A stretch of 63,116 nt of DNA, the filler included, from Bipalium vagum (taxonomy: Eukaryota): NCBI GenBank assembly GCA_037834085.1. It is 3 parts of 3 records of this genome, joined end to end, with 100 filler letters (N's around TTAATTAATTAA, not from the genome) between each part and the next. Parts side by side here need not be neighbours in the genome. Positions count along the whole stretch, not along the records: positions 1 to 22,809 come from JBBMKC010216358.1; 2 more parts are not named here. The stretch is one strand, 5' to 3'. The position numbers and the translations under genes were made by a program. The notes beneath the pieces were generated by a model. It ran no database searches. It saw only the letters and a program-made list of their open reading frames with translations, and was not told the origin of the DNA. This document shows positions 441 to 29,460 of the stretch, in pieces. The first letter of the stretch is position 1. Every line of letters starts with the position of its first letter.

Positions 441-2810
441 AGTTTAATGAAAATTTAAATGGTTTGAAAAATTTCCATCTTGAATATGATAGAACATGGA
501 TTCTTTAATTTTTGGAAGTAAATTAATTAAATAATCTCTGACGTCATCTCCTTCGTATATATCTTTTAAAATTAAATAATTTTTTTAAGAATTATAAAAT
601 TTATCTTTTTAAGTAATATTATTTTCATTATTATAATTATTTAAATTTTGATTTGCAACTATTCCGATAATTTAAATTTAAAGGAAAAAGTTTGCGAATA
701 TTGATGATTCAAATTTTGGAATAATATTTGCGAACCCAATCTGGAAGATATTAATATTATTAGAGTTTCAAAGAACAACAGAAAGAAACTTCTTACTCAA
801 CGTAATAGACAATTTTATTTCCTAAACAGATCATTTACATCTATTTTGTCCAGCTATACCAATGGCTGGTGATGTTACAATATGATTGAATTTTTCTTAA
901 AATGAAACTGGTGAATCATTTCTTACATTTTATAAATCTGAAAAATTATGACAAGAAAAATACGTTTAAGAAGTCGAACCACCAATATCACAATTCACTG
1001 GAATTTATATGAAGGTAAAAAATACCAATGGTATACTGGTAGCACCTACCGTGGTCACTTAAATGAGTTAAGAAATCAAAAAAATTATTACATAAAAATT
1101 ATCCGCCTTTAGATCGATCCTAATCATAAAAAGATAAATTACTATCAATTCTATTTACTTATTTAAATCTGTCGATAAACTATCTGAATAAACTCTAATT
1201 TTTGACATTAAAATGACGAGTGTTATTTAATGTAAGTCTAATAAAAAATTACCTTTTTAAATTATATTTTTATCATAATAAAAATAAAACGAATGCTAAT
1301 ATCGAAATCTTAAAATAAATCAACTTTAAAAACATGATGAAAGTAATGAAAATGGTGGATATGAATATAACTTAAAAACCAATTTATTTTCTTTTATGCC
1401 AAATTTCATAATTTTTTCATTCGATAAAATAAAATTTGTTACAATACTATTAACCAAAACTGATAAAAAAAAACATTCATCCTAACCAAATTTAATTTAC
1501 CATAAACAAAAAATAGCAATACCTGTATATATATATATATATAATTATATATATCAGTAACACTTCCACTGGTACAGATATGCTCGAAAAGTAACGCTTG
1601 ATCGAAATTATTCGAAAACCCGTCCAAGTGGAATAAAAGTGAGATCGGTTGATTTTCAAAAAATTAATTATTAAAAACAACAAACATAATAATGAAATTA
1701 AAAAAAACAATATATTGTAAACTATGCAATATACGATGTTTTTATCAGTGGAATAAATGGATAAATTGTCTGTGGTCAATAATATCATATTGATTTTTAT
1801 ATAAAAATTCCAGATCAAACTATAAAGCCAGTAATATCCAAGATGAACCATTAACTGTTAAGTCTGAAAGCAAATAAAAGATGAATAAATTAAACATTTG
1901 TTAAGTATAACACGAGATCCATTCGTTCATATCAGAAAATTGACAAAAATTTATGTTGTTTATTAATAAACATTTATGATTATTTATAAAGTTTCTCCAA
2001 TAAAAAATGATTTCATGAAACACTATCATCGATGTCTGTTTTCTACACTAAATTCTTCATTTTATCAATTTTTAGCAAGAGCAATTGCAAGAACAGAAAG
2101 TGATTTGATTTTAAAATTCTTTCTTAAAAAGTATTGTCCTGACAAAAATTACCATGATGAAAATGAAAAAATTACATTGATCAATGCAGAAAAATTTATT
2201 TTCGAAGCTTGTATTAAAAATTATATTTATTTATATTTTTATAAATAAATGATGTTTATTAATTGTGTCTATTTAAATCAATTTAAGCAGTCATTTTGAT
2301 TTCAGTTTCTGAAATTATAAACAAATTATTAATTAACTATTAGTTAAAACTATAACTTGACAATTTTTTTTCATATATAAATTTTCATTTAACAACTATT
2401 GTTTCCATTGATAGATTAATAGAAAATAGTTTATTTTATTTTTGAATTTAGAAATTTTTTATTTACTTTGTGACTAACAATAAAAAATTATTTTTTTAAA
2501 ATCATATCTGAATTTTGTATTAATTATACAATGGAAATACATTTTTCATATTTTTCAATAATCTATTAAACTTTATTTTACAATCAATATATGAAAATTA
2601 TAATCAAATAAAAATATGTCAACTAACATAGCTTTAAAAAGAACAAATCCAAATTAGATTAAAATCTTTTAAAGTCATAAACAGAGTAAAATATCGAAAT
2701 CAAATGAATTGTATATATTTAGAGAAAAGATTTCTCTTTTAAAAATGATAAAATCAATAGAACTTTGATATAAATATAAAAAGAGAAAATTACATTATTG
2801 TTAGTAATAT

Positions 2811-5800
2811 CTAATTATTGAAAATTGCACCTCCACCCCGAATGCCTTGAACCGCTTGTGGAGAAGTTATTGGTGCAGTACTCGGAGCATGACCGGCTCG
2901 AATTGGTTTGGCAATTTGAGGAGCTGGTCCACGTCTTGCTAAATTTCTTTGTCTCACAGCCTCTTTGATTCTATCAACTTCGTGTTGATATCGTCGTCGA
3001 TCTCGCATGGCTCCTTCTTTAGCATCTTTAAGAGCTGATTCAAGTGCTTTCACACGTTCAGTGGTACTCTTAATATTTGTATTTAACTTGTATTCAACAA
3101 ATCATCAGCATCAATGTTTAATAGAAGCTAATAAACCAAAACAACATCTATTTTTATTTTATGAAAACTGGAAGTAACATTAATTGTCAACAAGAATCTT
3201 TAAAAAAATTTGACAAATCTTTTAAAATATGAAATACAATATATTAAGTTTGAGAAAATCAATCATAGCCTATATTTCTTAGTAGAATGCCGAAGAAATT
3301 AATTTCAAATTTCATCGACAGTGTGAAATTATCATATTGTTTAACATCCGAGGATAAGAAAATCCTTGTGAAATCTCTGGACAGAAATAACACGAATAGA
3401 AAAAACGAATATTGTTTAATATTTAATATAAATTTATGGAAGTTATCGGAGAAAGTTTTATATCTTTGCTATGGTTACTAAAGAAATCTGAATTTAAAAT
3501 TAAATAAAACAGTAAAAAACATAGAAGAAAATAAAAAAATTAATAAAATAATATTTTCAGACTGGAAATTAATGAATGAAAGGAGAAATTCTCTAAAATA
3601 CGATCAAAATTACGGAATGTCAATTCCATTAATTTGAGAAACTGTACAAAGTTATAATAATAGATGAGAAAAGAAAAAAAATATATTTTTCAGAGAATTT
3701 TGCATAAAATCAAAAGTTAACATGTTATAATCAACTTATTGAAATCCACCAAGAAGCAGGTATATGGCTGGGATAATGAATAAATTTGATGTTCATGATT
3801 TTTATAGCCATTTTATTATTGTAATACATGACTTAAATATTTTAAATTTATTTGTAAACTTCATTTTTATTACTATTCAATTAGTTAAACTAAATTCTAC
3901 TTTTTGTTGTCATAATAATTATGCAACATGCCTCAAATTATTTGGAGATAGTAGTGAGTGAAGAACTGATAAAAAGTTTTAAAGATGTTTCATAATATTA
4001 ATTAGGGCTCATAGAAAATTTGATAGAAAGAAAAAAAATTACTTTATAGAATTTATTATATAGAAAATTTCTCAAAAAATTAGTTCATGATGCACATTTT
4101 ATTTTATAAGATGTTTTTTGCTAAATAATAAGTTATTGTTTGATATTTTCGATTTTGAAATTGGTTGTCATTTTTGAAGTTTAGAATAAAGTTCAGGTGA
4201 AATATCAACTCGTTGTAATAAAATAATTGTCCTTAATCAAATTTCTGATCATTCGTTTAACAATGTAGTTCTTAATTCTAGAAGGGTTTTACCGAAATGA
4301 CAGTTTTAATAGTATGATATAAACCTTTATGGAACTATAAGGACACGTTATATATTTTATAAAATTCGTTATCTGCTTTTATTTTTAACTCAAACACAAC
4401 TATTACCAAACCACACTTAATTGACTTTTGGGAACCTTAATAATGCTTTAACAAATTTTTCCTCAATTTATACAAAGTATATACTTGAAAAATATTCATT
4501 ATGTTCATTATGTCCTAAAAATTTTAATATCATTCATTGAAAAATGGTTAAAATAAAAATTAATTAGTTTGATAATCTTTAACAAAATCAATAATTACTT
4601 AAAATTAATTTAAAATATTAAATAAAAATCGATCGCATATTAAGACTTTAAGAGAATTTTATTAATTTATTTGTTTCAAAAATTTTAAGTCGTGATAATT
4701 TGAAAAATGATAGATTAAGATATATCGGAAAAATTAAATCCTTGCATCTAAAAATATTTGAAATTCTAAGTCAACTGGACTCAATTATTTCTTTAAGTTT
4801 GATTTTCTGTCTTTTATTTCACTTTTAAGAATGCAACTTTAATTGAGAGCGAAAAGGAAAGAATATTTGTGCCATTACCACTCCCTATCAATTATCACAC
4901 AAGGAATAAAATATAATCTTACTTTAAGTCGCTTTTCAAGTTTCGGTAGTTCCAGCCTCAAATCGGAATTGTCTCTAACCAGTTGCTTATGTACTTTGGT
5001 GAGCTGCTCAAGATTCATTTCCAAAAACTGTATTTTTTGTTTCTGCACCAAATTGCCAGATCTACCGTCATCGTCATCATCATCTTCGCCAATAATTCCA
5101 GAATCACGGTTCACATCACGTGTTGACTATTTGATAGATATTAGTACATACATATAGATCAATAATATTAATAAATGATATACCTTTTTCACCCGATTGC
5201 TCAGATCTTGAACAAACAACTTTCTCAAATTATGCAAAGTTTGCAATTCTTTCATAACCGTATCCTCTAAACCTTTGAGGTCCTGTCGAGCTTGCTCTCG
5301 TTTTTCGTTTGCTTTTTCCAATCCTTCTAATTTTGCGGCTTTTATTTCTCCTTCGGCTACCACTTTCTCATATTCTTCTTTCAATTTTTCATTTTGGAAA
5401 GTCAAATGATGAATTTTGCTTTAACAATAAAAAAAATTTTGGATTTAAGTATCAAGTTTTCTAACTCTTTCATTTCCTCGCTCACACGTTGCTTCTCATC
5501 CAATTTGTCTCGCAGTTCTTTAATCTGTTGAGAATATTGCTCACTTTGCCGTTTAAATTCCTCATCCAATTTTGATTTAATATCCAATTGTCCGGCAAGT
5601 ATTTCTGCTCTATTTTGAGCATTGGCATTAACAATCAATTGTTCATTTGCCTTGAACTTAGATATTTCAGCATTCAATTGATCGACTTGTTCTTCAAGAT
5701 TTCGTTTCTGTAATTCTGTATCGTCTATTTTGTTATTCAACGTATTCATTCGAACTTCAAACTAATTATTATAAATAAAAAATAGTTTATAACCAGATAA

Positions 5801-8800
5801 CATCATACCTCTTGAACTTTCAATTTCATATCGCGCAATTCTTCGTCGGTTTTCTTGAAATTTTGGTGTTGTATTTGTCTTTCCTCTTCCAATTGTTTCA
5901 CGCGCATTTGAGTCGTCTTCGCTTCAGTTTTCATTTTACTAATATACAATCGTATAACTGTAAACTCCTCATCGATTTTCTCAATTCCAGCAAATGAAGG
6001 CTTCTATAAATCGACTTAAACACAAAACAAATGAATTTAATTATTTACACTAAGCTGATCACTCATACATTCTCCAACGTCACCGAGATCCTTAATTAAA
6101 CTATTGAACATTTCCGTGTATTTCTTTTTCTGCGTCGTGTAATTTTCCTTTAATTGTTGTAATTCATTGTCTTTAGTATTGATATTTTGAGTCTGCTGAT
6201 TTATCTGTTCTTGCATATCTTCGAGTTCGTGGGTTCGGTTTTGAATTTCTTGAATTTTCTGATCATAATTCATTGCCAATTCCTCAAGAGCTTGAAGTAC
6301 TTCTTTGACTTCTTCTTTACTGGATTCATTTTCGCCCTACAAAATTTACAATGAATACTTACTTAAATGTTTAATGGAATTTAGATACCTGCAATCGAGT
6401 GAATTCTGATTGAATCCGTTCCTGGTCTTGTCTAAGACTTTTGATTAATTCATCCTGCTCTTCTATTTGTTGTTTAAGTCTTTCAACAAATTGGGCTTGT
6501 TTGTTAATTTCTTCATCTTTATCATCAAGTAATCTGTATAACTCGTTTACCGACGAACTTTCTCCGATTTGAGCTACGTTTGAAAATATATAATGATTAG
6601 AAAGTCTACCTATCCAAGTCACTCATTTAAATTTGTTATAAAAAAAACTGTTCAAGAGGAAACAAAAATATTTTATTTCTATTTCAACATTATAGTAATT
6701 CATAAGTAATTAAGTTTATTATTTAAAATAATAAAAAAACAAAATTAGTAAAAACAAAAGTAAAGGCCATTGAATCAATAGTTTTAAACTAGTTTTTGAA
6801 TCTCTTGTTGGTACCATTCCTTGTTCTTGGACCTGAAAAACTCTTAGCTTTCAATCTACGCCCTAGGAGAAAATGTACCACTGATCAAAAAAGGTGGTAA
6901 TCCAATAGGCCTATATTGGAACTGTATGCTGGATGTGATAACAGTTCAATAGATTCTCATTCTTTGATTTTCTCGATTGTTTTCTTGGCAGTGTGCTGGT
7001 TTTTATTATTGTGCTGTGAGATCACCCGCTTTCTATTGACAAATGCCGGATATTTCAGATTTAGTTTTTCAAACATTCGATCCAATTGAGCACAATATAG
7101 GTCTGCGTCTAGTGATATACTATTTGAAATCAATTTGAAGTTGATTATGCCTTGGAAATTCCACCAAACGCACAATAATGTCTTCTGTGAGAATTGGTCT
7201 CTGCTTGGAACAGGTTGCTTGCTCAGAGTCCAACAACTGATTATTTTTGTGATGATTTGTGATGATCACCAGAAGTTATAATTTGTCTAATGAATCGATC
7301 ATCCCTCGGATTTTGCAGCAGCTTTCTACACATTGACCATAATTTTAGGTCAAATCGTGAGGTACTTCTCTACATCGTATATTGACCATACCGATTTCTT
7401 TAAGGTGTCGGACAACTGTTGCTTTGGAAATACCTAGATCAGCAGACAATATTCGAGTGTAAGTCGATCGTTTTATCTCAACATTGCGTAGCGCTTCCTG
7501 ATTTACAGTTACTGGTCTACCGTATAGAACATGTCAACATTAAATATTTTGAACCAGATTTGGACTATACGAATATTTTTCTGGCAGCTTCACTATATCA
7601 AGGCAGAGTGCGAATTTCAAAATTTTTCCATTTTTATTTCAGCTAAAATAACATTTATAACATAATTTAAGTAACCCAATGGTAGAAAATTTATTAAATT
7701 TTAAATTGATATATAAATCGATATATTCAAATTTTTTATCAACTAAAAAATTACTTTGAACTACTTAAACAAAATAATAATTACTTATGAATACAATCCT
7801 TTACTCACAAAAGAGAAAGTTCTCTGAATTTGAACGTAATTATTATGGTCACAATAATTTAATAAATTTATGGTCACAATTCTCAAAATAATAAACACGT
7901 TAAATTTTTTTATCAAATAAAACTAATCACTGAAATCAAAATAAACAGAAATATTTTAAAATACTGAGATACAAAAGTTAATATTATAAAACTGGATAGA
8001 AGTATGTGAAAATATAAACGAGTAAGATAAAAATACTTACAAAAGAATTTCATAAATTTATTGATTTGCAAAAAATAATCTTTAATAATTTCAGAAAAAT
8101 TTACAAACATAACACAACGATCAGAAAGATTAAGAAAAAATGTCACTTTAATGACACAATTCCTATGTTTAAAATTCGATAGAAAATATAATTCCCTTTA
8201 TTATTTCACTGAAAATATCAATTATGAACAAAGAATTGTGTGGAGAATTATGAATAAGCTCTAATGAGTTAGTAAAAGATATGGTGAGAAGTTAAATGAT
8301 GTAATAAAATCAGAAAACAAGCATAAGTGGTTCACAAGGATTCCTATAATAAATAACGAATATATGACAGAATCAAAAGTTACTGGTCCAGCACAAAAAT
8401 ATTTTTATAAGAAAATTTCCGAATTTTTTATATTTAAATGTATTAAAACAACATTTAAAGAATAAATTTTAGATCAAACCAGTTATTAATTTTAATAAAA
8501 TTTATTGAAAATATCTTAAATTTTACTAATTATTACCTGTTCTTATTTTCTGATTATATATATCCGAATTAAGCCTATTCAAACTGTCCGTAGATGCAGA
8601 AATAAGTCCCAGTTGACTATTTGTCATTTCTTTAATTTCTTCAGCAAGTTGATTATACTGAGATTCAGTAAACCACTCGTTTTGATTTAATTTTTCACCT
8701 AAAATTATAATCGTCAAGAAAGGTAAAACTTGAAAAAAACACGTGAAAAAGATACCAGCTCGCCATTTTTTAATCTCTGCCTCCAATTTCATGATAATGG

Positions 8801-11213
8801 CTTTAAGTTGTTTATTACGTTGTTTTTCTTTCTCGTATCTTCTCCTCCATTCTTCAGCTGTCAATTCTTCGTTCACACTGACACAGTTTTTAATAGTTTT
8901 CGCTCTCATACCAAACATCAAAGTTGATTTAGTTTCTGCATCATTAAATTCTGCAGGAGAACAACAAATAACCATAGTAGTGCGAGCATTGCCACCGAGA
9001 GATTCTTGGAGTATTCTAGTCAATTTTGAATCTCGATATGGAATATGTGCCTAGTTTAAAGAATTAGGGCTTATTTTAAAAAAGTCCTAACAATAACTAT
9101 TCAGTAACATTTTAGAAAATTAAAACTTATTTTATTAAATCATTAAGCAAAACAGGATTTTATTTTGCACGAATTGTGTTCTGAATTATAGGCTAACTAA
9201 AAAATCAATAAAGTTTTGTTGGAATTATTAATGAATTGGTGGACAAAGAATTACATTTATTATTAAATAATTTTTATAAATATATACTGTGAATTTAATC
9301 ACCAGGAAAAAATTCTCTCATATACACACAAACCGAGTGATTGTGACTTCAATTTTCTGCTTTAAAAATCAATTCCAGAACTAACTTTCGTAGAAAAATA
9401 TTTTTCTCGAAATTTCTTACTGTCAAAAATAATAAATTAATAATCTTTTTTATATTCCAAAAATAATTATAATTTGAATTTTAGTTTACATCAAAAGGAT
9501 TAAATAAAACGGTAAAAACCTAATAATATTAAATGGATCTGAAGTCAAAATGACTTAATACTAATTTTCATATTTATGCAATAAATTATTTTTATCAATG
9601 TTCAGTAGACAGTGAAATTACTGTCATAACTAAAATCATAATAGAACGAATGTGCACATGTGATTCGAATGAAGCACATAAATTTTCGAATATCGATTAT
9701 TTTAAAATTAATATCTCATTAATTATACATCAATAAAAAATAACAATTAAAAAATGAATGAATATTCTTATGAATATTCAAGACGAAACTATAACTATAC
9801 GTAAATATTTTAAGTAAAATATCAATAAATTACACTGCCTTCCACCAATGCATTGATTACATTCCCCAATGCAGACAAGGATTTATTGATGTTTTTAGCC
9901 TCATCAAGAACAGTTCCTTCTGCACCGGTTTTTGCCACTTTCTCACTTCCTGCCAAATCAACAAGATATAACTTCCCGTGTAATTTTTTCTGAGTTTCTA
10001 AATTTTCCTGTTTGACTTGAATCATAAACACTGAATGACTTCTACTACTATGTTCGTTCATATCTAAATATTCTTAGAACAACTGAAAACGTTAATAATC
10101 TCCTCACTTGTAACAGACACATGTCGATTTGCTTTTCCTTCATCAATCACATCAAATACCTCTTCAGGGCTAGAAACAAACCTTTCTGTTGCTCCCTTCA
10201 TCAAAATTTAATTCAAATACAAAATTCAAATAATAGCAAAACCTTTACAAATGGAACTCGATCTTTATCTTCATGCACTGATAAATTAGTTTTCGATACT
10301 GCAAAAAAGATTTTTTTAATACTTTAGTTTTAGATATACTTGATTTCCTAAATTATTTTAATATTATTTATCTCAATCTGTATAATTTTTGGTACACATG
10401 TGAATTTATAATTTCTATATATTATATCACAAATTCTACACAATAAAGTTAGAAATATTTTATAGAAATAGATAAAATATATATAACTAAAGAATAGATT
10501 TTAATTTTAAAGAAAAGCTGTGCCGATTTAACACTTGATATATCATAAATCTTTATAAAACATTTGGAATTAATGTTTTTTTAAAAATTGATTAATTTCT
10601 AGAATACTTAATACTCATTATACAATTTTAATTTGATAGTAAGAAATTCATACCATCAAGCAAATCTCTGATTTTATCCAGATATATTTCGAAATATGAG
10701 ACCTAATATAATAATTAATAAATATTGATTACTTTATGATTATTGAAACCTTAATATGAAATTCTAAATTTTCATCCATAGTATAAATATGATCAAATAT
10801 GTCATGAATAATTCTAGGAATTATCCCTTGATATTCTGGATCACCCAAAACTCCTTCCATAGTAAATGTTTTACCACTAGCCGTTTGACCATATGCAAAA
10901 ATTGTTCCATTATAACCACTCAAAACATCAGCAACAATTGGCTTCGCAACAACCTCATATACTGCTGCTTGAGTTGATGTATGCTGCAAAACTCTGTCGA
11001 AAGTGAACGTGCGTCCCTAAAAATTAGATCAATCCATTCTTTACATGTGCGAAAAAATATAACTAATAAAAATGATCTAGAAAATAAACCTACTTGAATA
11101 ACGACCGAATTATCCGTTGATGGAGGAAAAGAAAGACAGCTCTTGCTTTTAAGATTAGTTTCATTTACATTTAAAGGTCTAACTCGACATACAACTTTAA
11201 TACTTTCTGACAT
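2811..11213 (-). CDS. Khc: Kinesin-1 heavy chain (KIF5/Khc orthologue), about 15 exons
   Basis: ATG at 11213 ([13 protein letters not shown]). P-loop GQTASGKT (~10870), switch I NEHSSRSH and switch II DLAGSE (9822-10061), LGGNARTT and neck [17 protein letters not shown] (8526-9051), coiled-coil exons 4920-6580. The last exon 2811-3068 follows an AG acceptor ([18 protein letters not shown]...QIAKPIR, the IAK autoinhibitory motif). Introns checked are GT-AG. Confidence 0.97.
6770..7680 (-). mobile_element. Degenerate mariner (Tc1/mariner) transposase inside a kinesin intron
   Basis: ORF 6957-7175 [11 protein letters not shown]...LYCAQLDRM...[11 protein letters not shown] is the typical mariner catalytic region; flanking frames are broken. 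Confidence 0.85.
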
Positions 11214-11819
11214 TGTTTACAAAATATTTGCAACGATATGGTAATTAAATATTTATATATTTATTAACTAGATTATTTAAACAAAGTGACATTGTCTATA
11301 TATTAGTATTCTAAATTTTAAAAATTATATTTTACTCTAAATTTGTATTTATAATAATTCATTGTGCTACAAGTAATTTACTTTATACAAATAAAGAATT
11401 ATTATTCATAAGATATAATACCAATAATTTTGAAAGAAATAAGGGATTTTGTATTAGAAAGAGTTTAAAATCCATAATAACAATAAAATATAAATGCATT
11501 TTATAATTTTAGTTTATTAAATAAAAAATTTTATTATAAAAAAAATTAATGTACTTAAATACATAAAAATTAAAAGAAAAATAATAATTTTTAACATAGA
11601 CCCAAAAAACGCACTCAACTTTAAAATCGATTAGGAGCTGATTCACAAGCCGCTTGACAGTTTATTGACGATTAAATTAAATAGTAATTATTTGTATTTT
11701 ATCATTTAAAACTTATTGACTTAAATTTATTATTTTCTTCAATGTGATTGATTTTGTTTGAGATCACAATTTACTGACTATGCTTTCAAATACAAAAATA
11801 AATTTGAAAAAGGTTATAC

Positions 11820-12457
11820 CGCAAAATCGGCGACGTTCGCCACAATGGTTGGATAGAAATAAAACTCCAAAACATTTCCCAAAGCCAAATTTCTACAATA
11901 AAAAAATTATGGTGACTATTTGGTAGCCCATGGCCGGTCTGATCCATCACAGCTTCCTAAATATGGGCGAGACTATTACAGCAGAAACATACTGCCAGCA
12001 AATAGAGAAAATACATAGGAAACTTCGAGTCATCTGTCCGGGACTGGTCAATAGAAAAGGTCCAATTCTGCTGCACGACAATGCACGACAATGCACGCCC
12101 ACAATGGCACAAACAACATTGCAGAAAATAAACAATTTGGGCTACGAGATTTTGACTCATCCTCCATGTTCTTCAGACCTCTCACCAACAGATTTCCATT
12201 TCTTTAAGGCTCTGGATAATTTCTTGGTCAATAGGCGTTTCGAAATCCGAGCCAATGCTGAAATGTCCTTTGAGGAGTTTCTTGCCTCCAGGAACAAAGT
12301 TTTTCATTCCACAGGCATGAATAAACTCATCACTAGTTGGTAGAAATATATTGACTTGCATGGAAATTATCTTGATAATTAAAGTTTATTTCCCATTGAA
12401 TTATGACATTTTTACTTTTATAGCTGTAAAACGACATTATTTTTGCACCAACCTAAT
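11820..12457 (+). mobile_element. 5'-truncated mariner transposon (DD34D type) with right TIR
   Basis: ORF 11930-12343 has ILLHDNAR and HPPCSSDLSPTDFHFF. A mariner-type TIR end aaaacgacattatttttgcaccaacctaata lies at about 12428-12457. Confidence 0.9.
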
Positions 12458-13159
12458 ATATTTAAATATTAAAGTTGTTTTAATTTTTAAAATTTTTAAT
12501 TAGTATTTATTTATTTAATTATATAAAAAACAAGATGAAAAAAAGCAGCAGAATAATTGCAATTTCCTACAATTCCACTATTAGAAATATTCGGTAAACT
12601 AATAGATGATGACGAATACTTAATAGATTGTGATTGTAACCCTCGAAAAACAAATATAATTCAGGTACATTATCCTGGTACTCAAAAACAAACAACGATA
12701 ACCGAAATAATAGATCTGACAGATACCTTAAAAGAAGCACAAATTCTCCCTAAGGAAGTAGAACCAGAGTATTGTGAAGTTCCTAAAGAATCAGAGGAAG
12801 AAAAACCATTACAGCAGGAAAAGCACGAAATAGTCCATAAGGTATGGCAGGAAATGGATCAAACTGATGTTGTATTACATGAAATTTTAGAACAAGATTA
12901 TCAACCCCTTGCTCAAATGAACCCACGATATTGGCCCACTGATATAGATGATGCGCAAATATCAGAAGATAACAATGAGCTTAAAATCCCAGAGTACAAT
13001 TCCACCTAGAGATAAGCCGACAACATCACAAGCAAGAGACCAAACTATACAAACTGATATAGTTTCAGGTTCGCAAGTAGGAACTCAGAAACCAGCAATC
13101 AAAATTAAAAAACCAAACCCTGTATCGGAAAGTATACCCTACATTAGGCAGTTAACAAA

Positions 13160-13600
13160 AACGGATACGATAAATCAAATAAAACAAAACCTTATATTTA
13201 AACAAGCGCAAAAATTGGCCGAACAAGTAAACAGTGATTTTGAAAATGAAAACATTCCAAATGAGCTGCTACACAATGTTACTACCATAATAAATGCCTT
13301 GCAAACTGATAATTGCCCGAATAACAGTGAAAATTATAATTTAATAAATAAGATAAAAAATCTAATTCCCAAAATCAAAAGCTTAAATGATATGAACCTA
13401 TCTCAAGTACAAGACCTCATCACAAACACACCCAATCAAGGAACATGTCTAACGGGACTCACAATTTTAATTCAACAGGCAATGCAAAGTATTAAACAAT
13501 CCCCAGAAAAAATACAAAGAATCATCAGAGATACTACAATGAATATAAAAGAAATAGTGGAACCCTTTCTTGAAAATTTGGGAGGATGGCAAACGCTAAA
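13160..13600 (+). pseudogene. Putative Bcl-2-like domain within the retroelement polyprotein
   Basis: Helical segment with BH3-like QAQKLAEQVNSDFE, BH1-like TPNQGTCLTGLTIL (cf. NWGRIVAFF) and BH2-like EPFLENLGGWQTL (cf. WIQDNGGWDAF), in the correct order and followed by a hydrophobic anchor. Confidence 0.55.
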
Positions 13601-13642
13601 TGCAAATCCTACAACAAATCCAACAAGTAGCAGTAACTCAAA

Positions 13643-15457
13643 TATGGTACAATGGATGATGATGATGATGTTAATGTTTTCACTGATTAAAACCGGAGGA
13701 GGATTGATAGCATATGATTCTGCGAATCCGAAATTTGGAAAAATATATTCCCTTATAGACACACAAGAATGCACTTACTTATCATCTAGTAATCTCACAG
13801 CCAAAACATCAGCTTATTATGTCTATCAAGAAGGTGATTACTTCCGTACGCACGCAAAGGAGTGCGAGTAACAGCCGAAACATGTGAAAATGCTTTCCAA
13901 TTTAATAAAATCCGAATAGATGACAAAAAACCCATTGCCGTCAAAGAAAATACGATTACTAGGCAAATAGTTACACGAGGATCAATAAATTATGATGGAA
14001 AATGTGATGGAGAACAGAAAAAGGTATCCGGACAGGACGTCAACGAGGTGGTAGACATAGAGGACTATCAAGTTGAACTACTTACTTATGAAGGAGTATT
14101 TGATGTCATTACTGGACAATTATTATCTAAACCAAGTTGCAATCTAAAAAAGGGATATTGTGTCACGCAAGAAGCAGCATTATTGTATGATAATAATAAA
14201 GATCACTGTAACCTGAGAAGTCTGAAATTGACAAACTTTCATGAAATAACAGGCGTACGACTTAACCCAGCCAGAATAAATATACAAAAATTCCAGAAAA
14301 TTACCGAACAGCCCCGAGGAGAAGTTCTGCTATAGATGAAGCAAAAACACCTACTGTTCTAGTAACAACGGATAGAAAGGAACTAATCCGATTGATTATT
14401 AAGAAACAAGTAGTAAAATGTGGAGTAGCAGTATTTGAAACCAATTATAAAGGAATATACGTCACTAAGGACAGAGTATCAAAACCAATGCCAAAAGATA
14501 GCTCAGACATCAAGATAAATATGTATTTAAATAATAAAATCGATTATCTATATCATGATTTACAGACACAATTAAAGGATGTATATCAAGAGACTATTCT
14601 AAATAACTGCAAATTAGGACGAGAAATATTAAAAAATTGGTTACTTTTAGCCATTAATAATCACGAACTAACATCACCCCTATTAGTACAGGATGGCGGT
14701 TTTGGTTGTAAAATGGGCGAAGCCTTGTACACGTACAAATGCGAGAAAGTAAATGTCCCATTAGCAAAATTCAATGAATGTACTAGTGACTTACCTATTA
14801 TTTATCAAAAGAAACTACGGTTCATTTCCCCATTAACTCGAATAATACTAGAAGTAAATGTGCAGCTTCAAATAGCTATGTGGTCCTATTATATCCCCTT
14901 TATATAATATCGGAGAACAATGGATATCCTTACCACAGAGGAAACCACTAAGAGAAAAAGTACAAACCATAAAGGGAATAGAAATGCAAAATATGGTTGA
15001 GTTTACACCTTTACCTTCTATTAATGAAGGAGAGATATATTCTCCCGAAGACATTGATCAGGTCAGGAAAGTAATACTATTTCCTCAGTCACAAGAGAGA
15101 GGTATAATATAAATGATCACAAAAATTTACAATGCCCAGGAAGGTAAAATGGATTACAACCTATTATTTGGAGCAGACCATTATTTTATACATGCAGCAA
15201 AAAATGTCATCACGTATATTTGGGGAGGTTTTAATACATTTGGTACATGGATTGTCAGATTTTCAGGTGTATACTTCATTTGCCAAATACTAAGAGGAAT
15301 CGGTAGCAGTTTCATGTCAGGTCGTAGTTTACATCACGCACTAGAATGCTCATGGAAACTAATTTTAGCCAGATGCCCACCAATAGCCAATCGAGAACTG
15401 CACAAAAGACATCGAAAAGACATTGATTTATTGAGGAAACAATGCCATTACATGTAA
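13643..15457 (+). pseudogene. Chuvirus-like (Jingchuvirales-type) envelope glycoprotein, frameshifted
   Basis: Signal-like MVQWMMMMMLMFSLIKTGGG then LIAYD..YSLIDTQEC; GSINYDGKCDG; CNLKKGYC; YLNNKIDYLYHDLQTQLKDVY...CKLGREILKN...GEALYTYKC...ECTSDLPI...FISPLTRII; C-terminal TM WGGFNTFGTW...GRSLHHALECSWKLILA. All are characteristic of chuviral-type glycoproteins. Confidence 0.85.
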
Positions 15458-15869
15458 AAACCCATTACCAGAACCTCAAAGCACAGGCATCATCACCATA
15501 GGAAGCATAATAATAGTAACGATGACAATGGATCAATTCTCCCAAAACCTATAATCACAGAACCCAAAGATTACTGACCTAACTGGGATGTAAAGGAACC
15601 AAAAGACATCTACAGTACCACCTCACAAGTTTATAATAAATTTAAGACTAGTATTATCAAGAAAAGGAGAACACCCTCTGTAATTGAACCAATAGAATTT
15701 CAAACACACCAAACTAGCAGCCTAGATAGAATGCCAAACAGATCAACTGTATATCCCCAATCTGAACTAACGAAAATTCGAAAATCCATTCAAGAAAATG
15801 ATGTTATGATGCGTTTAGGAATACCTCAACGTACATCATGCATGGTAATAGATAAACTAGGTCACATAA

Positions 15870-16170
15870 ACGATAACAGACCATATGTCCGTATCAAAAT
15901 AAATAACCATTCTTTATTAGCCTTAATTGACACAGGTTCAACAGCTTCCCTTATTCAAAAATCAATTCTTACACCTAACGAACTACAAAAAATGGATAAT
16001 ACTAATAATGGTGATAGGCATCGGAAATATGCCATATTGTTTAGCAGGCACATTGAAATACTAAATCATCAAATAAGTTGTAACATCAAAGTTGGAGAAG
16101 ACAATGCACATGAATGCGTACTTGGAATGGATATATTGAAACGAATTTCAGATTTAATGCTAATTTTTAC
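15870..16170 (+). pseudogene. Retropepsin aspartic protease copy 1
   Basis: RPYVRIKINNHSLLALIDTGSTASLI...ECVLGMDIL. Confidence 0.9.
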
Positions 16171-16489
16171 CACTGGTGAAGTCTTTGACGAGAATAAAGT
16201 ACTTACACCAAACGAACCCCTAAGCACTAGCACGATAGCTTGCAATGAAAATACCGATTTCACTAGTGAAATTGTAAATAAATCCGATGACATCATTAAC
16301 TTAATTAAGGAAACAATGGATGAAAACACAAACCGTATAAATCAACCTATACCCAATATTTCAACGTGTAATGATAAAATTGTGCAAGATATATTAGCAG
16401 TAGTTTCCAGTATGGGTCATCAATACGCATTTGGATTGAATGAAGATGGAGTATTTGAACAACTATTTACACATTTATCTATTCTTTTT

Positions 16490-17130
16490 ACCATACCCGA
16501 TCAGTATGGAGATACCCCGCTTCACAACGCTATTCTAAAAGGAAATATTAATCAAGCCAGAGATATAATTCGTATAATCAAAGAAAAATACTGGTGGATG
16601 TTGGATCACGAAGACATTTTTGGTCTTACCCCTTTGATTCTAACACCATCATGCGATACACCGATAGGATTAATGCAAACACTAGTAAACTTAGGCTGTA
16701 GAATTGACAAACGTGACAAAATGGGAAAATCTGTTATTGATTATACACTGGATTCGTGTAATGTCGCTGCCTTACGATTTCTTTTAGATAAATTTAAACA
16801 ACATAATCTAGAACAAATAATAAATTGTTACCCAAACAATTATTATTCGCCATTTCAAAATGCCATAATGAAACACTTTATTCCCAGAGTATAAATGTTG
16901 CTCGAACTTAAAAATGAGGCAGGAGATTATATGGTGAAAATAAACGATCAAAACCCGATGAATGGTCAAACAACATTACATATAGCAGTGATAGCTAGTC
17001 ACCCTCATATTTTAAGACTACTACTAGAAAGACCAGATATAAATACTTACATTCAAAACACTACTGGTGATACAGCCTTAGATGTGGCATATAGAATGAA
17101 GGAATTATATACTGCTGAACTAATTCTGGC
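16490..17130 (+). pseudogene. Ankyrin-repeat array 1 (about 5-6 repeats)
   Basis: DQYGDTPLHNAILKGN, FGLTPLIL, DKMGKSVIDY, YSPFQNAI, NGQTTLHIAV, TGDTALDVA. One in-frame stop at 16892-16894. Confidence 0.9.
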
Positions 17131-17319
17131 CCAAGTAAATATTAGACGGATAAATACCCCATCATTAGTCAATCCATGTTGTGTAATTTCACCCTTAAAT
17201 ACCCATAGCGGTGACAATACTAATATTGATCAACCAACTACATTTTAATACCAAAATTAAAATTGACATATTACCCTCTAGCACATCATGTATGATGATG
17301 GACGGATTAGAAGAAGACC

Positions 17320-17630
17320 AAAGGCTATATGTAGTCATGAAGATAAATGAACATATAATGTTAGCATTAATTGATACGGGTTCCCAAACGTCATGCTTAC
17401 ACAGGGAAATTTTAACAGAACAAGAAGAAGATCGTCTCGAATATAACCCTATGGTAGCATACGGAGTAGGAAATACCCCATATTGCCTCACAGGTACATT
17501 AAATTGCACCATACACTTTCTAAACCAAGTATTTGAACATCCGATGTATATTATCGACTCAAATTCCCGTATTCAAATTCACTTATTTAAAAGGATTCCT
17601 AATTTGGTACTAAATTTACGAACAAATAAA
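17320..17630 (+). pseudogene. Retropepsin aspartic protease copy 2 (C-terminal G-M-D motif missing)
   Basis: RLYVVMKINEHIMLALIDTGSQTSCL...YGVGNTPYCLTG. Confidence 0.85.
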
Positions 17631-17979
17631 ATGTATACAGAAAATCCTCAAGAATCAGGCAATGAAAGTTCTTCATCTAGTGGTGCATCTTCAATTCAGT
17701 CATTTGAAGAGACATTTGGAGTTAGAGAAGAAACAGTAGAGGAAATGAGAGAAGAAAACCGCACAAACGAAAACAATACCTTAAACGAATCAAATCGACA
17801 GATAGAAAAACCAGTCATGATAGTTGCATCTATGCATACCACAGCAAACTCAAATATGCATACAAATGCTCTAAGACAATTCTTCACTGATATGTCAAAA
17901 CTAGCTCATTATTTTGCATTTGGAAGGAAGAAACAAAGGAAGAAACTTTCAACGAAATGGCTAGAAAATTACCCGCTTT

Positions 17980-18630
17980 ATTCACAGTCCCTGACAAGTT
18001 CGGTGATACTCCATTGCACAACGCAATTCTGAAAGGAAACTCAGAAGTAGCACTTGAAATAATCGAAATTATAAAAAATAATTTTAAATGGGTTCTTAAT
18101 TTCGAAAACACTTTTGGACATACACCACTCCTAGCAACACCTGCATGTGATGTTTCATTAAATGTAAAAATCAAATTAGTCGAGAGTGGATGTAAAATAG
18201 ACCATTGGGACAAAGCAGGAAAATCAATTATAGACCATGCTTTAGAAGCTAACAATATAAATGCCCTGCGATACATAATGGTACAAATCCAATGCAAACA
18301 CTTACCCCAAATGTTCCACCGATATCGAAACAATGTGCAAACGTCCTTACATTTAGCGGTGTCATTAAATTTTGTAGAAGCAGTAAAGTTAATGATTGAA
18401 CTTAGAGGATATGATAATGAATTCATGATAGACATAAACGAGAGAAAATATTTAAACGATGAAACATTCCTTCATCTTGCAAGCCGTCATGAAGTGAATA
18501 CAGAAACAATTAAAATACTGCTAAAAAGGCCTGATGTGGATTTATTCCATCAAAATATATACGGTCAAACTGCGCTAGACATGGCCCGAGATAAGCAACT
18601 AACAGAAATTATAACCTTACTAGGCGCAGC
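17980..18630 (+). pseudogene. Ankyrin-repeat array 2 (paralog of array 1)
   Basis: DKFGDTPLHNAILKGN, FGHTPLLA, DKAGKSIIDHA, VQTSLHLAV, DETFLHLAS, YGQTALDMA. Confidence 0.92.
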
Positions 18631-18789
18631 CGAATATAACACCATAATTAATATGCAACAAACCCCTCATTGTTTGATCAAATAGACATATTTTCTGATT
18701 TTAATTTTCACCTTGTAACTAGAAATGACAATGATTCACCACCATCTAGTGTAAGTTGTGTACGAAATTCATTCATAACTAACAAAACC

Positions 18790-19400
18790 CGACCCACGAT
18801 TACGATCAGAGTAAATAAACATAGAGTTCTGGCTCTAGTAGATACTGGAGCACAGACATCTCTTATTGATGCTCGCATTTTAAATGCAGAAGAGCAAGCT
18901 GCAGTAAATACATCACCGATATCAGTAATAGGCGTAGATGGTAAATCAGTACCTTTATTAGGAACATGCAGAAGTATCGTTAGAATAATGGGTCACGATA
19001 TAGATCATACATTGAAAGTAATGGAAAAAAATGAACTTGAGTGTATAATCGGCATGGATATTTTATCCAAAATCCCTGGATTAATTCTTGACTTTGCAAC
19101 TCAACAATTAAAATTCTTTCATCCCAAAAGTTGTAAAAATGCTGATCATGTAGCCGTTGTGCTGGACCAAGCCATTATACCCGCCAAGCACAAACAGATA
19201 TGTCTGTTAGCTACTAATTTACCTAATGGGCAAGAAGTGATGTTTGAACCTTCAGAAAAATTCATTAACAGTAGTAATCTCACCACGCAAGCTACGTTAG
19301 CCATTGTGAATCGTAACCGAATCCCCATAAGAATAGCTAATTTTGACATAAAACCAAGAAAAATCCATCCCGGAATGAGAGTGGGAACTATTAACGAATA
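18790..19400 (+). pseudogene. Retropepsin aspartic protease copy 3 (pol-proximal) plus the beta-rich spacer common in gypsy pol
   Basis: RPTITIRVNKHRVLALVDTGAQTSLI...GVDGKSVPLLG...ECIIGMDIL, followed by IIPAKH...VMFEP...IPIRIAN...IHPGMRVGTI. Confidence 0.9.
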
Positions 19401-19501
19401 TGTTCCACACACAGATACCATAACCCAGCAAAAAAGGCATATGAACCAGTACAAGTAACCACATCTACCCTGACAATTATCTAAAAAAACGGTTCGCTCA
19501 A

Positions 19502-20840
19502 TTGTTAAGAATTTACAAAGATGCATTTGCCAAACATGAATTTGACGTAGGAACATCTAACATTTTACAACATGAAATACGTCTCACAAATCCCCAACCT
19601 ATTAAACAACGAGCTTACCGCACCCCACACACCTTAAAAACGGAGGCGGATAAGCAAATAGCTCATTGGCTAGAGACTGGTATCATTAGCCGTAGTTCAT
19701 CACCATGGTCCTCAGCTATGATAATTGTAAAAAAGAAAGGAGGAGAATGGAGAGTGTGTATAGATTACCGAAAATTAAATGAAGTAACCGTAAAGGATAA
19801 CTATTCACTTCCATTAATTGAAGATATGTTTGACAAATTGGGTACAGCTAAGCTGTTTACCACAATTGATTTACAATCAGGATATATGAACATCAAAGTT
19901 GCCGAACAGTCACGAGAAGCCACAGCATTTATAACAGAAAAAGGTTTATATGAGTTCAATAAGATGCCATTCGGTCTTAGAGGAGCACCCGCCACATTTC
20001 AAAGAGCAATGAACCTTATGCTCATGGACATTGCACATGTCATGGTAGACATAGACGACATTATCGTATTTTCCCCTGACTTCGAAGCCCATATGAAGGA
20101 CATGGAGGAAGTATTAAAAAGAATAAAAGTAGCTGGTTTCAAAATTAAACCCAGAAAATGTGAATGGGGAAGAACTCGGTAAAGTATATAGGGCATATAA
20201 TATCTCAAAATGGCATAGAACCTGATCCTGAAATAATAGAGAAAGTAAAAAATGCAATAGCTCCCAAAACGCCCAAGCAAGTACAAATATTTCTCGGTTT
20301 AGCAAACTATTACCGAAGATTTGTCAAAAACTTTGCCAAAATCGCAGCACCTCTAAATAAACTATTAAAAAAGGAACAGACTTTCAAATGGACTACTGAT
20401 CATCAAACGGCCTTTGATCAATTAAAACAATGTTTAATTTCATCACCAATCCTACGATACCCTGATCCCAAAAGACAATTCGAGCTAATGTGTGATGCTA
20501 GCGGAACTGCTATTGGAGCAGTACTAGGACAAAAAGATAATGAAAACAGAGATTACGCAATTGCATACGCCAGCCTTAGCCTTAAACCCCACGAAAGCAT
20601 TATGCGGTAATAGAACTAGAATGTCTAGCAATCATATTCGGAGTTACAAAATTCCGAACCCATTTATGGGGTCGAGAATTTATTGTGCATACCGATCACA
20701 ATCCTTTAGCTTATCTAGAAAAGCACCGAGACACATCATCCCGCCTTATAAGATGGTCACTTAAACTGCAAGAATACAATTATAAAATAATTTATCGAAA
20801 AGGAAAGGCGAATGCAAATGCAGACGCACTATCCAGAATG
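19502..20840 (+). pseudogene. Reverse transcriptase and RNase H (Ty3/gypsy), frameshifted
   Basis: SSSPWSS, WRVCIDYRKLN, IDLQSGY, MPFGLRGAPATFQR, catalytic DIDD (YxDD mutated), YIGHII, FLGLANYYRRFV, CDASGTAIGAVL, TDHNPL, RLIRWSLKLQEY, GKANANADALSR. Confidence 0.96.
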
Positions 20841-21039
20841 CCTGAAGTATGTTTACTGAGTCAGATAAAAAAGCTTAATACCCTTGACGATCTTAAATGA
20901 GTAATAAGCGACGATTCGGAAATACAAAAAATTGACCACTATATAAAAAATCCATCTCTTGCTACAAATACTCCATATGCAAAATTATTAAAAAAATTTT
21001 CATTGGAATGAAGGCTTATTAAAATATAAAGAGCATTTA

Positions 21040-21235
21040 AATTCAGTTATTTTTGTACCAGAAAGTCTACGAGAATCAGTGTTGGTACAGTATCACGATG
21101 GAACACTTGGTGGACACCTATCAAATCGAAAAACCCGTTCCCGTATCAGTCAAAAGTACTACTGGCCAAATATGATTCAAGATATCAAACAATGGTGTAT
21201 CACGTGTAAAATCTGCCAAACACGTAAAACACAGG
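21040..21235 (+). pseudogene. Integrase N-terminal HHCC zinc finger; catalytic core absent
   Basis: YHDGTLGGHLSNRKT...YYWPNMIQDIKQWCITCKICQ, then an abrupt switch to unrelated AT-rich sequence. Confidence 0.9.
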
Positions 21236-21255
21236 AAGAAAATTTTTTGATAATC

Positions 21256-21462
21256 TTAATTCAAAACAATTTTTATATATTTGAATGCTGCTTGAAGAAA
21301 AGCACTTTTAGAAAAAATAATTAAATTATTATAATCAATAAAATTTTGAGTTAATAACATTTTATACAATAATTCTGTTTTTCCTGATCCTGAAAGACCA
21401 ATAATTAACATTCTATTAATAAATATTGTTTGTATGATTATCAATTTGAATTGTGTTATCAT
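21256..21462 (-). pseudogene. Polinton/adintovirus-like A32/FtsK-type packaging ATPase, N-terminal fragment
   Basis: RMLIIGLSGSGKTELLYKMLL..FIDYNNLIIFSKS, a Walker A motif in the typical Polinton ATPase context, next to a penton-like remnant. Confidence 0.75.
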
Positions 21463-21689
21463 CCAAAAAATTTGAACAAAAATTATTATCCATTTTTATA
21501 TTTTTTAAAATATTTTTTTAGTTATACCTGCTTTAAGTGCGACTTCGTCTTAACTCGCAGACAATAGTCTGCTGTGAACTGAAGGTTCATCAAACTTGTT
21601 TAAGGTGTATTGTGAAACAAATTTCTTTTCCATTAAAATCTATTAATTTTCCTTTATCATCAATTATTTTAAATTTAATTTCATTAATT

Positions 21690-22350
21690 TTTTATGTAAT
21701 CAAAGGAAAATAAATTGGAAATTTTGGTCTGTCAATAATTCTGTATCCTTTTCGAACAGTATTTGAAGGAAAATCAAAAATTATGTTAGTTCTTTCTCTA
21801 TTAAAAAATGCTCCTTCAACAATATTACAATCAACCATAATTCTATTTATATTTGAAATATTAACTGGTTTAGATTCATGAATTTTTTTTCAGTTTCAAA
21901 TCCTAAAATGGTAGCTAAAGAATTTTCTTTAGGAAATTGAACAAAACAACCTTTAGATATTTTAATTAGACAATTTAAAGAAATTGGATTTGGTTTTATT
22001 TTTATATAATATAAGAATTTTATATAATATAATATAATATTCTTTCTCTTTTAATGGTTCTAAACTTTTATTATATTTGAATTCATTTTCAATAACTTTT
22101 GACATTTCTTCAATTTCATATGCACCTGGAGTTATATATATTTTATATTTTTAGTTTTTGACTTAAGTTTACTATCTGTAACTTTTACAATTATTTTATT
22201 ATTATTTTCATTAATATTAGAAATTGAATTAAAAGTAGAAAAATAAACTAATGATAATTCATAGTTAAAATTAGAATGAAGAACTAAAGGTGTTTGAAAT
22301 TTAAAAGTAATATCAGAATTTTTACTTTGTACAACAAATGATGTTGAAAA
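21690..22350 (-). pseudogene. Polinton/adintovirus-like minor capsid (penton) remnant
   Basis: Manual translation: SDITFKFQTPLVLHSNFNYELSLVYFSTFNSISNINENNNKI...PGAYEI...NSLATILGF...PVNISNINRIMVDCNIVEGAFFNRERTNIIFDF. Confidence 0.75.
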
Positions 22351-22809
22351 TTTTTGATATTTTTTCTAAACCGACAAAAGAGTTGACTAGACCTTCGGTC
22401 ACTGCTTCCATTTTTAGAGAAAAAATTCAATCAGAAACTAATTCATATTTTTTTATTATTTTATCATAATTTTTTCTTTAATTCTTTATTGCTTTTTTAA
22501 TTTATTTTAAAATTAAATGATTAAGATTATCATGTTCTACTTTTTTAGCTGCTAAATATTTGCTTAAAGTTACAAACTGATCAAGAGAATGTTTTGGTTT
22601 GTAAATTTTATAACCTTCTCCTTCTCTTTATATTTCTTGTTTTTTATTCAATTTCTTTTGAATATTTTTTATATATAATGATTTCATAGATCCTTTAACA
22701 CATTTTGTGAAATCTAAATATAAAATTAAATCTTTATCATTAAATTCTTTTATCCACCGATCATTATAAATATCTGAATAATATTTTCCTTCCAACAAAG
22801 ACTTAAAAC

Positions 22810-24099: not shown

Positions 24100-25437
24100 A
24101 GTACTAATGTTGAGTGGCTGCGAAGATCGTGTGATATGACTATTTTTCATCGCAATCTAAAATTTCTTCTCTACAGCGTAGATACTTTGAAGAATATGAT
24201 TAGAAAAATTATTTTTTTAAGACTAAATTTTATGTCTTGTTAAAATATGTTGACAACTTTTTTATTAATGAAATTATATTTAAACCTAAAACCAAAGAAC
24301 TAACGCTTCGAAACATTTTTCAATCTTTCAGCATCGTTTTTCGATACGGTATCGGAAAGAACAGCTTTCAAAACATTTTCTACGTCCTTTGATTCTACTG
24401 AAGTTATAGATAATTTTTATGATTGAAAAGAAAAGATCCCACTTAAATCATTTAGTTTTTTTTCCTTTAAAAATATGTCCTGAAATCGACTTCCTTCCCG
24501 TTTAGGTGAAAAACAATTTTCAATCAACAGCTTATCCGCGGAAAAATTAAGAACTAAATTATCATTCATTATTTTGTTTGTATCATCAATTATTTCATGT
24601 GCATTCACATCTACACTTTCAGACGGTTTCGACGAATTCACTTTGAAACCTAGCATTTCATATTCATTATCTCCAATCCCTCGCAACTCAATTATCTCTG
24701 CACAATTATCTGGTCCTTTCAAGAACCATTCCGGTTCCGTGTTTCGATTATTTAATCGAGAATTTAAACTCATTGATGACAACACTTTTTGTTCTTTATT
24801 CTCTTCACGTTTTTCGTCGAGATTAGAATATGCTAAATTAGCCTTTTCTGGTTTATTAATGCCATTGGTATGAACTTTTTCAGTGTTCTTTATTTTGGTC
24901 ACATTACGAGTTTGATTACGATTAAAACGCATTTTATCGTAATCACCTCGACAAGAATTAGATCCCACAGTTTGATATGACTTTCTACTAATACTTATAT
25001 TGTCCTCCGTAATTCGCTTGTTGTTTGTAACTTGACAACCATAATTCCATCGTCTTCGTTCCGGTCTTAAGCTAATATCATCTTTAATTTTACCTGTAAA
25101 ATAATAATTAAAACATGTGATAATTTAACTAATATTATAAAGCCGTACGAACTTTTATTTTCTGAAAACACTGTCGGTTTCACTTCTAAAGAATTTTTAG
25201 AAAGTTCAAAAGACTTAACAGGATCCCATTGATTATCAATGTTAATACACTTTTTATCTAAACTTTTAGGCCATATTACAGAAACCTCAGATTTTCGTAA
25301 TGATACTAATATTTCCTAAATGATAAAAATGCAATTTAACAAATCATTTAATCATTTTTAATTCTTAAAAGCTTAAAACGAACTCTGGGATATATTTTTC
25401 TAGATATTTTAGGAATATTGGTGTCATTATTATCCAT
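24100..25437 (-). CDS. EIF4ENIF1: eIF4E transporter (4E-T / EIF4ENIF1 / Cup-like), multi-exon; 3' end uncertain
   Basis: Exon 1 25384-25437 (MDNNDTNIPKISRKIYPR), exon 2 25153-25315 (EILVSLRKSEVSVIWPKSLD...QWDP), exon 3 from 25093 (DDISLRPERRWNYGCQVT...EPEWFLKGPDNCAEIIELRG...GSRFQDIF). These give the YxxxxLphi eIF4E motif, WDP, the LSPQRR..GC-like motif, the Cup-homology domain EPEWF..GP....IEL.G and the GSRF motif. Splice phases of exons 1-3 are consistent. Confidence 0.85.
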
Positions 25438-26454: not shown

Positions 26455-27026
26455 TTTGGTTGTCTAATAAATTCGTGCCGTTTTTTTTCGAAGTCGTTTT
26501 GAATGACATTAGACATCTATTATTAATTTAATTTAATATTTAAATAGACAGATCACGTGTTTGTTATTTATTAATAGTGCTTTTAGCTCATTAGTTTTTA
26601 ATTTAGTTTTACATGAAATTCAAAATGGATATCCAATTCAATAAAAATGAACATCTCCGACACGCTCTTCTATACCAGTTTAATTGCCATGTTAATGCAA
26701 CCCAAGCTTCCCGAAACATAAATGCCGTGTACGGAGAAGGTACAATGTGTCTTCGGGCAGTTCGAAAATGGTTTTCTAAATTTAAGAAAGGTGATTTTAG
26801 CCTTAACAATGCTACTCGTTCCGGACGTCCATCCCATTTCAGTGAAGAGTGTCTCAGCTCTCTTCAAAAAGCTGACAATCGCCAAACAACACGTGAATTA
26901 TCTGAACAACTTAGTTGTAATCCACAGACAGTCCTGAACCATCTCCTTAAAATGAGGAAAGTTCAAAAATGTTATAAATAAAAATTTTGCATTTTAAAAA
27001 CGGCACGAATTTATTAGACAACCTAA
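26455..27026 (+). mobile_element. Internally deleted mariner with near-perfect ~31-bp TIRs and TA target duplication
   Basis: Left TA|tttggttgtctaataaattcgtgccgttttt, right aaaaacggcacgaatttattagacaacctaa|TA (1 mismatch). ORF 26613-26981 encodes only the HTH DNA-binding part (HLRHALLYQF...VRKWFSKFKKGDFSL...RSGRP). Confidence 0.93.
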
Positions 27027-29099: not shown

Positions 29100-29460
29100 G
29101 ATTTGTTTTCAAATCCTAATATTTCACAGATTGAATTTTCTGGAAAAGAAATAGTACAATCTTTAAATATTTTTGTTACACAATTTGAAGAAATTGAAAT
29201 ATCATTAATTGTTATATAATACTATTCTGGTTTTAAGGGTTCTAATTCTTTTATACTTTTAAGTCCATTCTCAATATATGCAAATATATCAGAAATTTCA
29301 TATGTTCCTGGAGTTATCTTTATCTTTAGAGATTCTTTCTTTTCTTTTGAATCTGTAAAAGTTAAATCTATTCTATTATTTTTTTCACTAACATTAAAAA
29401 TAGAAATATAAGTTGAAAACTTTTTAATATGTAAAAATGAAGTATTTTAATCAGAATAAT
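29100..29460 (-). pseudogene. Second penton-like remnant
   Basis: FSTYISIFNVSEKNNRIDLTF...KIKITPGTYEISDIFAYIENGL, paralogous to 21690-22350. Confidence 0.7.

Follow-up and report, generated by a model that had tools for sequence, protein, structure and literature searches.

The window analysed here, a 63,116-nucleotide stretch of the Bipalium vagum assembly GCA_037834085.1, contains a decayed fragment of a Burro-like Ty3/gypsy retroelement in which env lies in frame with pol. Its polyprotein probably enters the endoplasmic reticulum (ER) at an internal signal and leaves it at the Env transmembrane helix (TM), with protease (PR), reverse transcriptase (RT) and integrase made as the cytosolic tail of Env. 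This LTR-retroelement fragment occupies approximately positions 12557-21258 of the plus strand (~8.7 kb) and has a GC content of 0.33-0.37, compared with mostly 0.15-0.30 elsewhere in the window. Pfam matches follow one another in the order Monjiviricetes fusion glycoprotein (four pieces), aspartic protease, ankyrins, protease, ankyrins, protease, RT, RNase H and integrase zinc domain (Table 1). The PR-RT-RNase H-integrase order of Ty3/gypsy elements is thus followed in the window as far as the integrase zinc domain, and is complete in L002, the closest full-length relative. Gag is missing from the window copy, since residues 1-641 of L002 match nowhere in the window by tblastn, as are the integrase core, the C-terminal extension and anything 3' of the integrase zinc domain. 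An LTR pair was sought in the window and in L002, both partial sequences, and none was found. The window copy has many breaks of its own, including stops within Env and ankyrin.

Table 1. Parts of the retroelement fragment, in positions of the window
Feature	Position	Strand	Basis
Remnant of the Gag-to-Env region, one frame change	12557..13643	+	L002 residues 642-680, and those from 746 onward, match by tblastn
Predicted internal signal peptide, upstream of the Env ectodomain	13644..13709	+	Hydrophobic stretch upstream of the conserved Env start
gB-like (Monjiviricetes/chuvirus-type) Env ectodomain and membrane-proximal helix; three frame changes, one stop (15110)	13710..15235	+	PF24664 in four pieces; L002 model
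Predicted Env TM	15236..15310	+	Alignment to the TMs of relatives; weak in the window copy
Predicted cytosolic tail, comprising a short Cys-Pro amphipathic helix, HKRHRK and the stretch linking these to protease 1; stops in frame at 15455 and 15575	15311..15871	+	
Aspartic protease 1, DTG kept, lineage-specific duplicate	15872..16171	+	PF13975; tree
Ankyrin repeat block 1, stop at 16892	16493..17170	+	Ank Pfam matches; PR and ankyrins form one segment aligned to P0156 1676-2034
Aspartic protease 2, DTG kept, C-terminal motif degraded	17316..17630	+	PF09668, E 9e-4; long tree branch
Ankyrin repeat block 2, 44% identity to block 1 over 133 aa	17966..18640	+	Pfam
Aspartic protease 3, of the three the nearest to the single L002/L003 protease	18787..19110	+	50-57% identity
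Conserved domain between protease and RT, placed where Burro has a dUTPase-like domain	19138..19410	+	Homologous in 7 relatives
RT and RNase H, interrupted by frame changes and one stop	19484..20972	+	Pfam; tblastn
Integrase zinc-binding domain, 3' end of the copy	21007..21258	+	PF17921

Several other features surround the fragment. A multi-exon kinesin heavy chain gene lies at 2800-11216 on the minus strand, its best named matches being flatworm proteins with 62-65% identity, and named flatworms account for seven of the ten top rows. Mariner transposase fragments were detected by Pfam at 11927-12343, 26607-26981 and 42016-42782 and by eye at 6957-7265, one of them just upstream of the start of the retroelement fragment. 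At the end of the latter, 21256-21495 (-) encodes a P-loop fragment with a weak Pox_A32 match (E 0.013); similar-looking fragments at 22132-22365 (-) and 29222-29446 (-) complete a set that is possibly a decayed Polinton. An exon at 24417-25124 (-) matches EIF4E-T (E 2e-7), and 52488-52646 weakly matches P0156 at its integrase end (E 0.003) and may be a piece of a related element.

The first-pass annotation had proposed that coding-like sequence runs from the glycoprotein TM straight into the first protease, through a basic HKRHRK motif and a Pro/His-rich linker and without an AT-rich intergenic tract, and on these points it was borne out. The C-terminus of Env is matched by PF24664 in frame 2 (15113-15454, E 1e-7), HKRHRK occupies 15401-15418 in the same frame and is followed by a His/Pro-containing linker, and protease 1 is again in frame 2 (DTG at 15929; PF13975, E 9.7e-8). 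Over 14894-16891, this frame is interrupted by the stops at 15110, 15455 and 15575 only. Within the linker (15410-15930), frame 2 holds 2 stops in 174 codons, the other two frames 21 and 16, and 11.8 are expected (P ~0.0006). GC stays at 0.31-0.44 throughout 15100-16100, compared with 0.17-0.22 at 12400-12600. The scarcity of frame-2 stops and the lack of a GC dip indicate that coding sequence runs on from the TM to protease 1. Residues 1332-1817 of L002 align with window positions 14876-16273 as a single, collinear frame-2 tblastn segment (41% over 497 columns), and the spacing from TM to DTG is 222 codons in the window and 226 in L002. L002 is also the only relative with a counterpart of HKRHRK (HKKHRK), more distant ones having no match. 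One detail had to be corrected: the linker was described as broken by frameshifts, and the breaks found are the two in-frame stops, 15455 and 15575. Compensating frameshifts may lie between them, in a linker that is poorly conserved.

Relatives were sought in two ways. A scan of metagenome contigs with the window RT gave 17 loci, two of which (L002 and L003) reach the Env-protease junction, while L001 and L004 stop short of Env. In the RT tree, L001-L003 group with the window RT at 100/100 support. L002 is one ORF of 3184 aa encoding, in order, four zinc knuckles, a weak UBX-like match, a signal, a gB-like glycoprotein, a TM, one protease, RT, RNase H and integrase. The UBX match has an E of 0.001-0.006, below the curated cut-off, and the ubiquitin match in the PDB (E 0.2) is at chance level. 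L003 was considered as a second in-frame example and dropped: its junction is out of frame via a deletion of ~180 nt, and it counts neither way. A further locus, L010 (6187-7896), carries an unrelated element whose genes follow the usual gag-pol-env order and whose env is of the baculovirus F type.

The Env piece was also searched against 1.84 billion representative proteins. Among the 150 matches listed, we scanned 18, namely all 16 of at least 900 aa plus P0003 and P0005, the other 132 being shorter. Env is followed by a protease in one chain in 11 of these 18 long relatives (10 by Pfam, P0012 by profile), and the cluster members P0154 and P0156 are likewise Env-protease fusions. Of the remaining seven, two (P0005 and P0026) extend little beyond the TM, P0143 contains part of Env, and four are distant (28-33%). 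A search for homologues of the protease 1-ankyrin segment among longer proteins returned one unrelated ankyrin protein only. The Env-Pol polyprotein P0011 is deposited as a Flavobacteriaceae MAG protein (HBK71150.1, from a contig of 9 kb); the contig is probably of animal origin and was sorted into a bacterial bin. The first-pass annotation had suggested looking for copies open in one frame across the linker: L002 and 12 further chains are open there, with no stop between TM and protease, and L003, with its deletion, is not. The joining of env to pol in one frame is genuine, is how this family is normally built, and has already been published.

What this frame implies for the placement of Pol depends on how Env sits in the membrane. 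The modelled L002 glycoprotein (pLDDT 85) has its best PDB matches in herpesvirus gB (E 2e-13, TM-score ~0.4), which is a single-pass type I protein. Given env and pol in one frame and a gB-like, type I Env, we infer that Pol would be synthesized in the cytosol, beyond the Env TM, and would need proteolytic release. All 15 of 15 chains have a hydrophobic signal-like segment directly upstream of the conserved [AG][YF]DC with which Env begins. The segment lies at a depth of 148-912 residues in the ORF, and no Met ahead of it is conserved among them; the depth in the ORF and the lack of a conserved Met fit an internal signal. One strong hydrophobic segment closes Env in 14 chains (hydropathy 1.53-2.43). 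The window TM is weak taken alone (best 19-mer 1.23), and its position was set by aligning it to the TMs of relatives. Past the TM come a short amphipathic Cys-Pro stretch and a net basic tail; K+R exceeds D+E after the TM in 13 of 14 chains, a weak sign of orientation, since the upstream side is basic too. The main doubt comes from that short stretch, which scored 1.46-1.71 by hydropathy in 6 chains: if it crosses the membrane, Pol would be luminal. In P0156, an insert located after the ankyrins and before the RT-adjacent protease consists of a signal, ~17 residues and a TM, that is, an even number of passes. Judged by hydropathy and homology, membrane segments come in pairs, so the enzymes would stay cytosolic.

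The proposal that the chain enters the ER at an internal signal, returns at the TM and leaves Pol tethered to Env therefore agrees with the single frame (L002 and the 11 of 18), the signal-like segments and the gB fold, while the topology itself is deduced from hydropathy, charge and homology. On that basis, we regard a flavivirus-like topology as a reasonable, partly supported reading, and a rather likely one. Flavivirus and alphavirus polyproteins are threaded through the membrane by internal signals and stop-transfer helices, and are cut by host signal peptidase in the lumen and by their own protease in the cytosol. If the topology holds, the likeness is one of topology only and no homology is claimed: Flaviviridae have an RNA polymerase, a class II envelope protein and a serine protease, whereas the present element has an RT, a gB-like class III fusogen and aspartic proteases. 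Under such an arrangement, signal peptidase would free the N-terminus of Env, and the element's own dimeric protease would cut Gag away from the signal stub and Pol away from the tail, perhaps after trimerization of Env has gathered the tails at a budding membrane. The three products, Gag, Env and Pol, would arise in a 1:1:1 ratio.

Such a ratio is unusual for retroviruses, which make far less Pol than Gag, and it speaks for an alternative in which, despite the uninterrupted ORF, most of the working Pol would be translated from an RNA that has lost env through splicing or some other shortening, the tethered form being a minor product and Pol not tied to membranes. Against this, env, TM and linker stay in one frame even among elements with RTs only 49-67% identical to that of the window, and membrane segments are paired in the chains examined, as expected under selection on the topology of the whole chain. 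We consider this alternative unlikely.

Other copies in the same organism bear on the stops of the window copy. In run X1, 2068 contigs match the stretch, with summed depths in the thousands compared with ~20-30 for single pieces; depth is not copy number, yet such a high sum implies a multi-copy family. Among the 40 of 1068 difference rows listed, other copies differ from the window at stop 15110 in 24 contigs and at stop 15575-15577 in 13, in both cases accounting for >99% of depth. Stops 15110 and 15575 are thus private decay, position 15455 lying outside the rows listed. No contig of run X1 spans the Env-protease junction, and the single-contig joints found there look like deletion copies. 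A conserved stop after the glycoprotein tail, which the first-pass annotation had named as evidence against a tethered Pol, was not seen in relatives or at 15575, a comparison that leaves out 15455.

That stop is the centre of a second alternative, in which Env ends at a real stop at 15455 in the Bipalium vagum family and the protease and ankyrins are reached by read-through or reinitiation, which would set the Env:Pol ratio. Of the breaks downstream of the TM it is the nearest, the P0005 and P0026 chains run only a short way past their own TM, and the single in-frame stop that precedes a 607-codon frame in L002 indicates that such stops occur in the family. Nevertheless, the window copy has many private breaks, the neighbouring stops at 15110 and 15575 are absent from other copies, and L002 and 12 further chains read without a stop from TM to protease, which makes a genuine terminator at 15455 very unlikely. 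We retain the reading in which Pol continues from the Env tail.

The number of proteases is a separate matter. Nine chains contain both Env and RT; between the two domains, five have one protease (L002, P0011, P0013, P0021 and P0023), three have two, and P0156 has five. P0156 (4844 aa) carries seven DTG proteases in all, together with C2H2 zinc fingers and ankyrins homologous to those of the window, and in P0004 and P0156 further proteases lie beyond integrase, far from Env. DTG is kept in all 32 protease domains detected in 15 related chains, with a profile seeded from DTG-bearing copies. The three window proteases and the single ones of L002 and L003 fall into one clade (support 96/98), in which protease 3 is nearest to these two, and proteases 1 and 2 are longer-branched duplicates, each followed by an ankyrin block. 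Duplication arose more than once, in the window lineage, in P0014 and in a clade of 18 copies. Some protease pairs are ~135-160 residues apart, whereas the window copies are ~480 codons apart with ankyrin blocks between them.

The first-pass annotation had offered tethering as an explanation of the extra copies. This did not hold up: tethering does not require extra proteases, as five of the nine Env+RT chains, including L002, have a single one. One protease suffices for the layout, and the two extra copies in the window are duplicates that, judging from their arrangement, likely cut out ankyrin cargo; each duplicate would travel with its cargo module and help to excise the ankyrin block. The least probable alternative, that the extra proteases add cutting power for a tethered Pol or are tandem copies that pair within one chain and cut before assembly, draws on the conserved DTG under its DTG-seeded profile, the repeated duplications and the closely spaced pairs, and is countered by the single-protease chains, by the ankyrin-filled distance between the window copies and by the proteases placed after integrase in P0004 and P0156.

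Six chains extend past integrase in the same ORF (L002 at 8965-9954, and the C-termini of P0004, P0011, P0021, P0154 and P0156). All six have a second signal-like segment and an ectodomain of 215-376 aa, with a clear TM in five. In these relatives, Pol would be a loop anchored at both ends. The second ectodomains have no blastp similarity to each other and no Pfam match, and a homologue search found nothing among 1483 candidates. An AlphaFold model reached a pLDDT of 35; a fibronectin-III-like fold in some is a lead only, drawn from an Atlas score (0.88) and from the motif LxPxTxY/H, present in 4 of the 6 chains. The 607-codon frame of L002, at 9958-11778, follows the single in-frame stop that closes the main ORF. 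It has no Pfam match and only chance-level matches in a PDB sequence search, and part of it may resemble a DEDDh exonuclease. A wider reading, to which we would give about an even chance, is that these are retroviruses built like flaviviruses, with one polyprotein crossing the membrane in four to six paired passes, a cytosolic Pol loop held at its two ends, another envelope-like protein of type I downstream of integrase (in some, fibronectin-III-like) and an expandable set of up to seven active proteases, one per captured cargo module.

The closest published counterparts are the Burro/GYPSM1 giant Ty3/gypsy elements of planarians, which carry env in frame between Gag and protease and have an internal region of up to 25 kb, a product of 4873-5140 aa and cargo that varies between species (Arkhipova and Yushenova 2019, PMC6431247, in the portions available). 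By that description, likenesses are the env in frame from gag to pol in the L002 ORF, with which the window is collinear across env-PR, Gag being absent; an Env that in Burro matches mononegavirus glycoproteins and here matches PF24664 and, in the L002 model, the gB fold; and ankyrin repeats, in two blocks in the window and none in L002. The hosts of Burro are planarians; here the best named kinesin matches point to a probable flatworm. Burro has a ubiquitin/SUMO-like domain before Env, where L002 has its sub-threshold UBX match, and a dUTPase-like domain between PR and RT, where the domain of the relatives, like its window counterpart, has no match in Pfam or the PDB. Differences are the 3184 aa of L002 and the absence of MATH, BCL2-like and BIR domains by Pfam from L002 and from the ORFs of the window, which is a fragment. 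With these three domains not found, and with a likeness drawn from the published description, the element is called Burro-like rather than Burro. The available text of that account is silent on several proteases, on membrane topology and on a second membrane protein after integrase.

Errantiviruses with a GAG-ENV-POL order and an HSV/gB-type Env have been described in Platyhelminthes, Nematoda and Bryozoa (Chary and Hayashi, eLife, PMC13524379, in the portions available). Gene order and Env type are shared, and six Schmidtea C1a Env rows resemble the window Env by eye, but their genes are three ORFs in order, and the terms 'polyprotein', 'fused' and 'single ORF' are absent from the main text. 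The same source cites nematode NERVs (Sacco et al. 2022) as having Env before pol, and the available text of PMC12440569 and PMC7642597 describes other lineages. NERVs differ from the window element in their nematode hosts. Sacco et al., in J Gen Virol in 2022, are said to have described a continuous gag-env-pro-pol ORF in them. In the literature found, seen partly in excerpt, nothing addressed topology, multiple proteases (up to seven DTG per chain) or a second membrane protein after integrase; Repbase reports, Grohme 2018 and subscription journals may cover them. Relative to that literature, what may be new is the multiple proteases, the second signal-ectodomain-TM and the paired passes, the env-inside layout being already published.

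If the topology is true, this would be a reverse-transcribing element that, in contrast to retroviruses, is assembled from one chain threaded through the membrane and contains Gag, Env and Pol in equal amounts. Further predictions would be a second protein at the surface and cargo cassettes bounded by proteases, which would account for the continued uptake of host domains by Burro elements.
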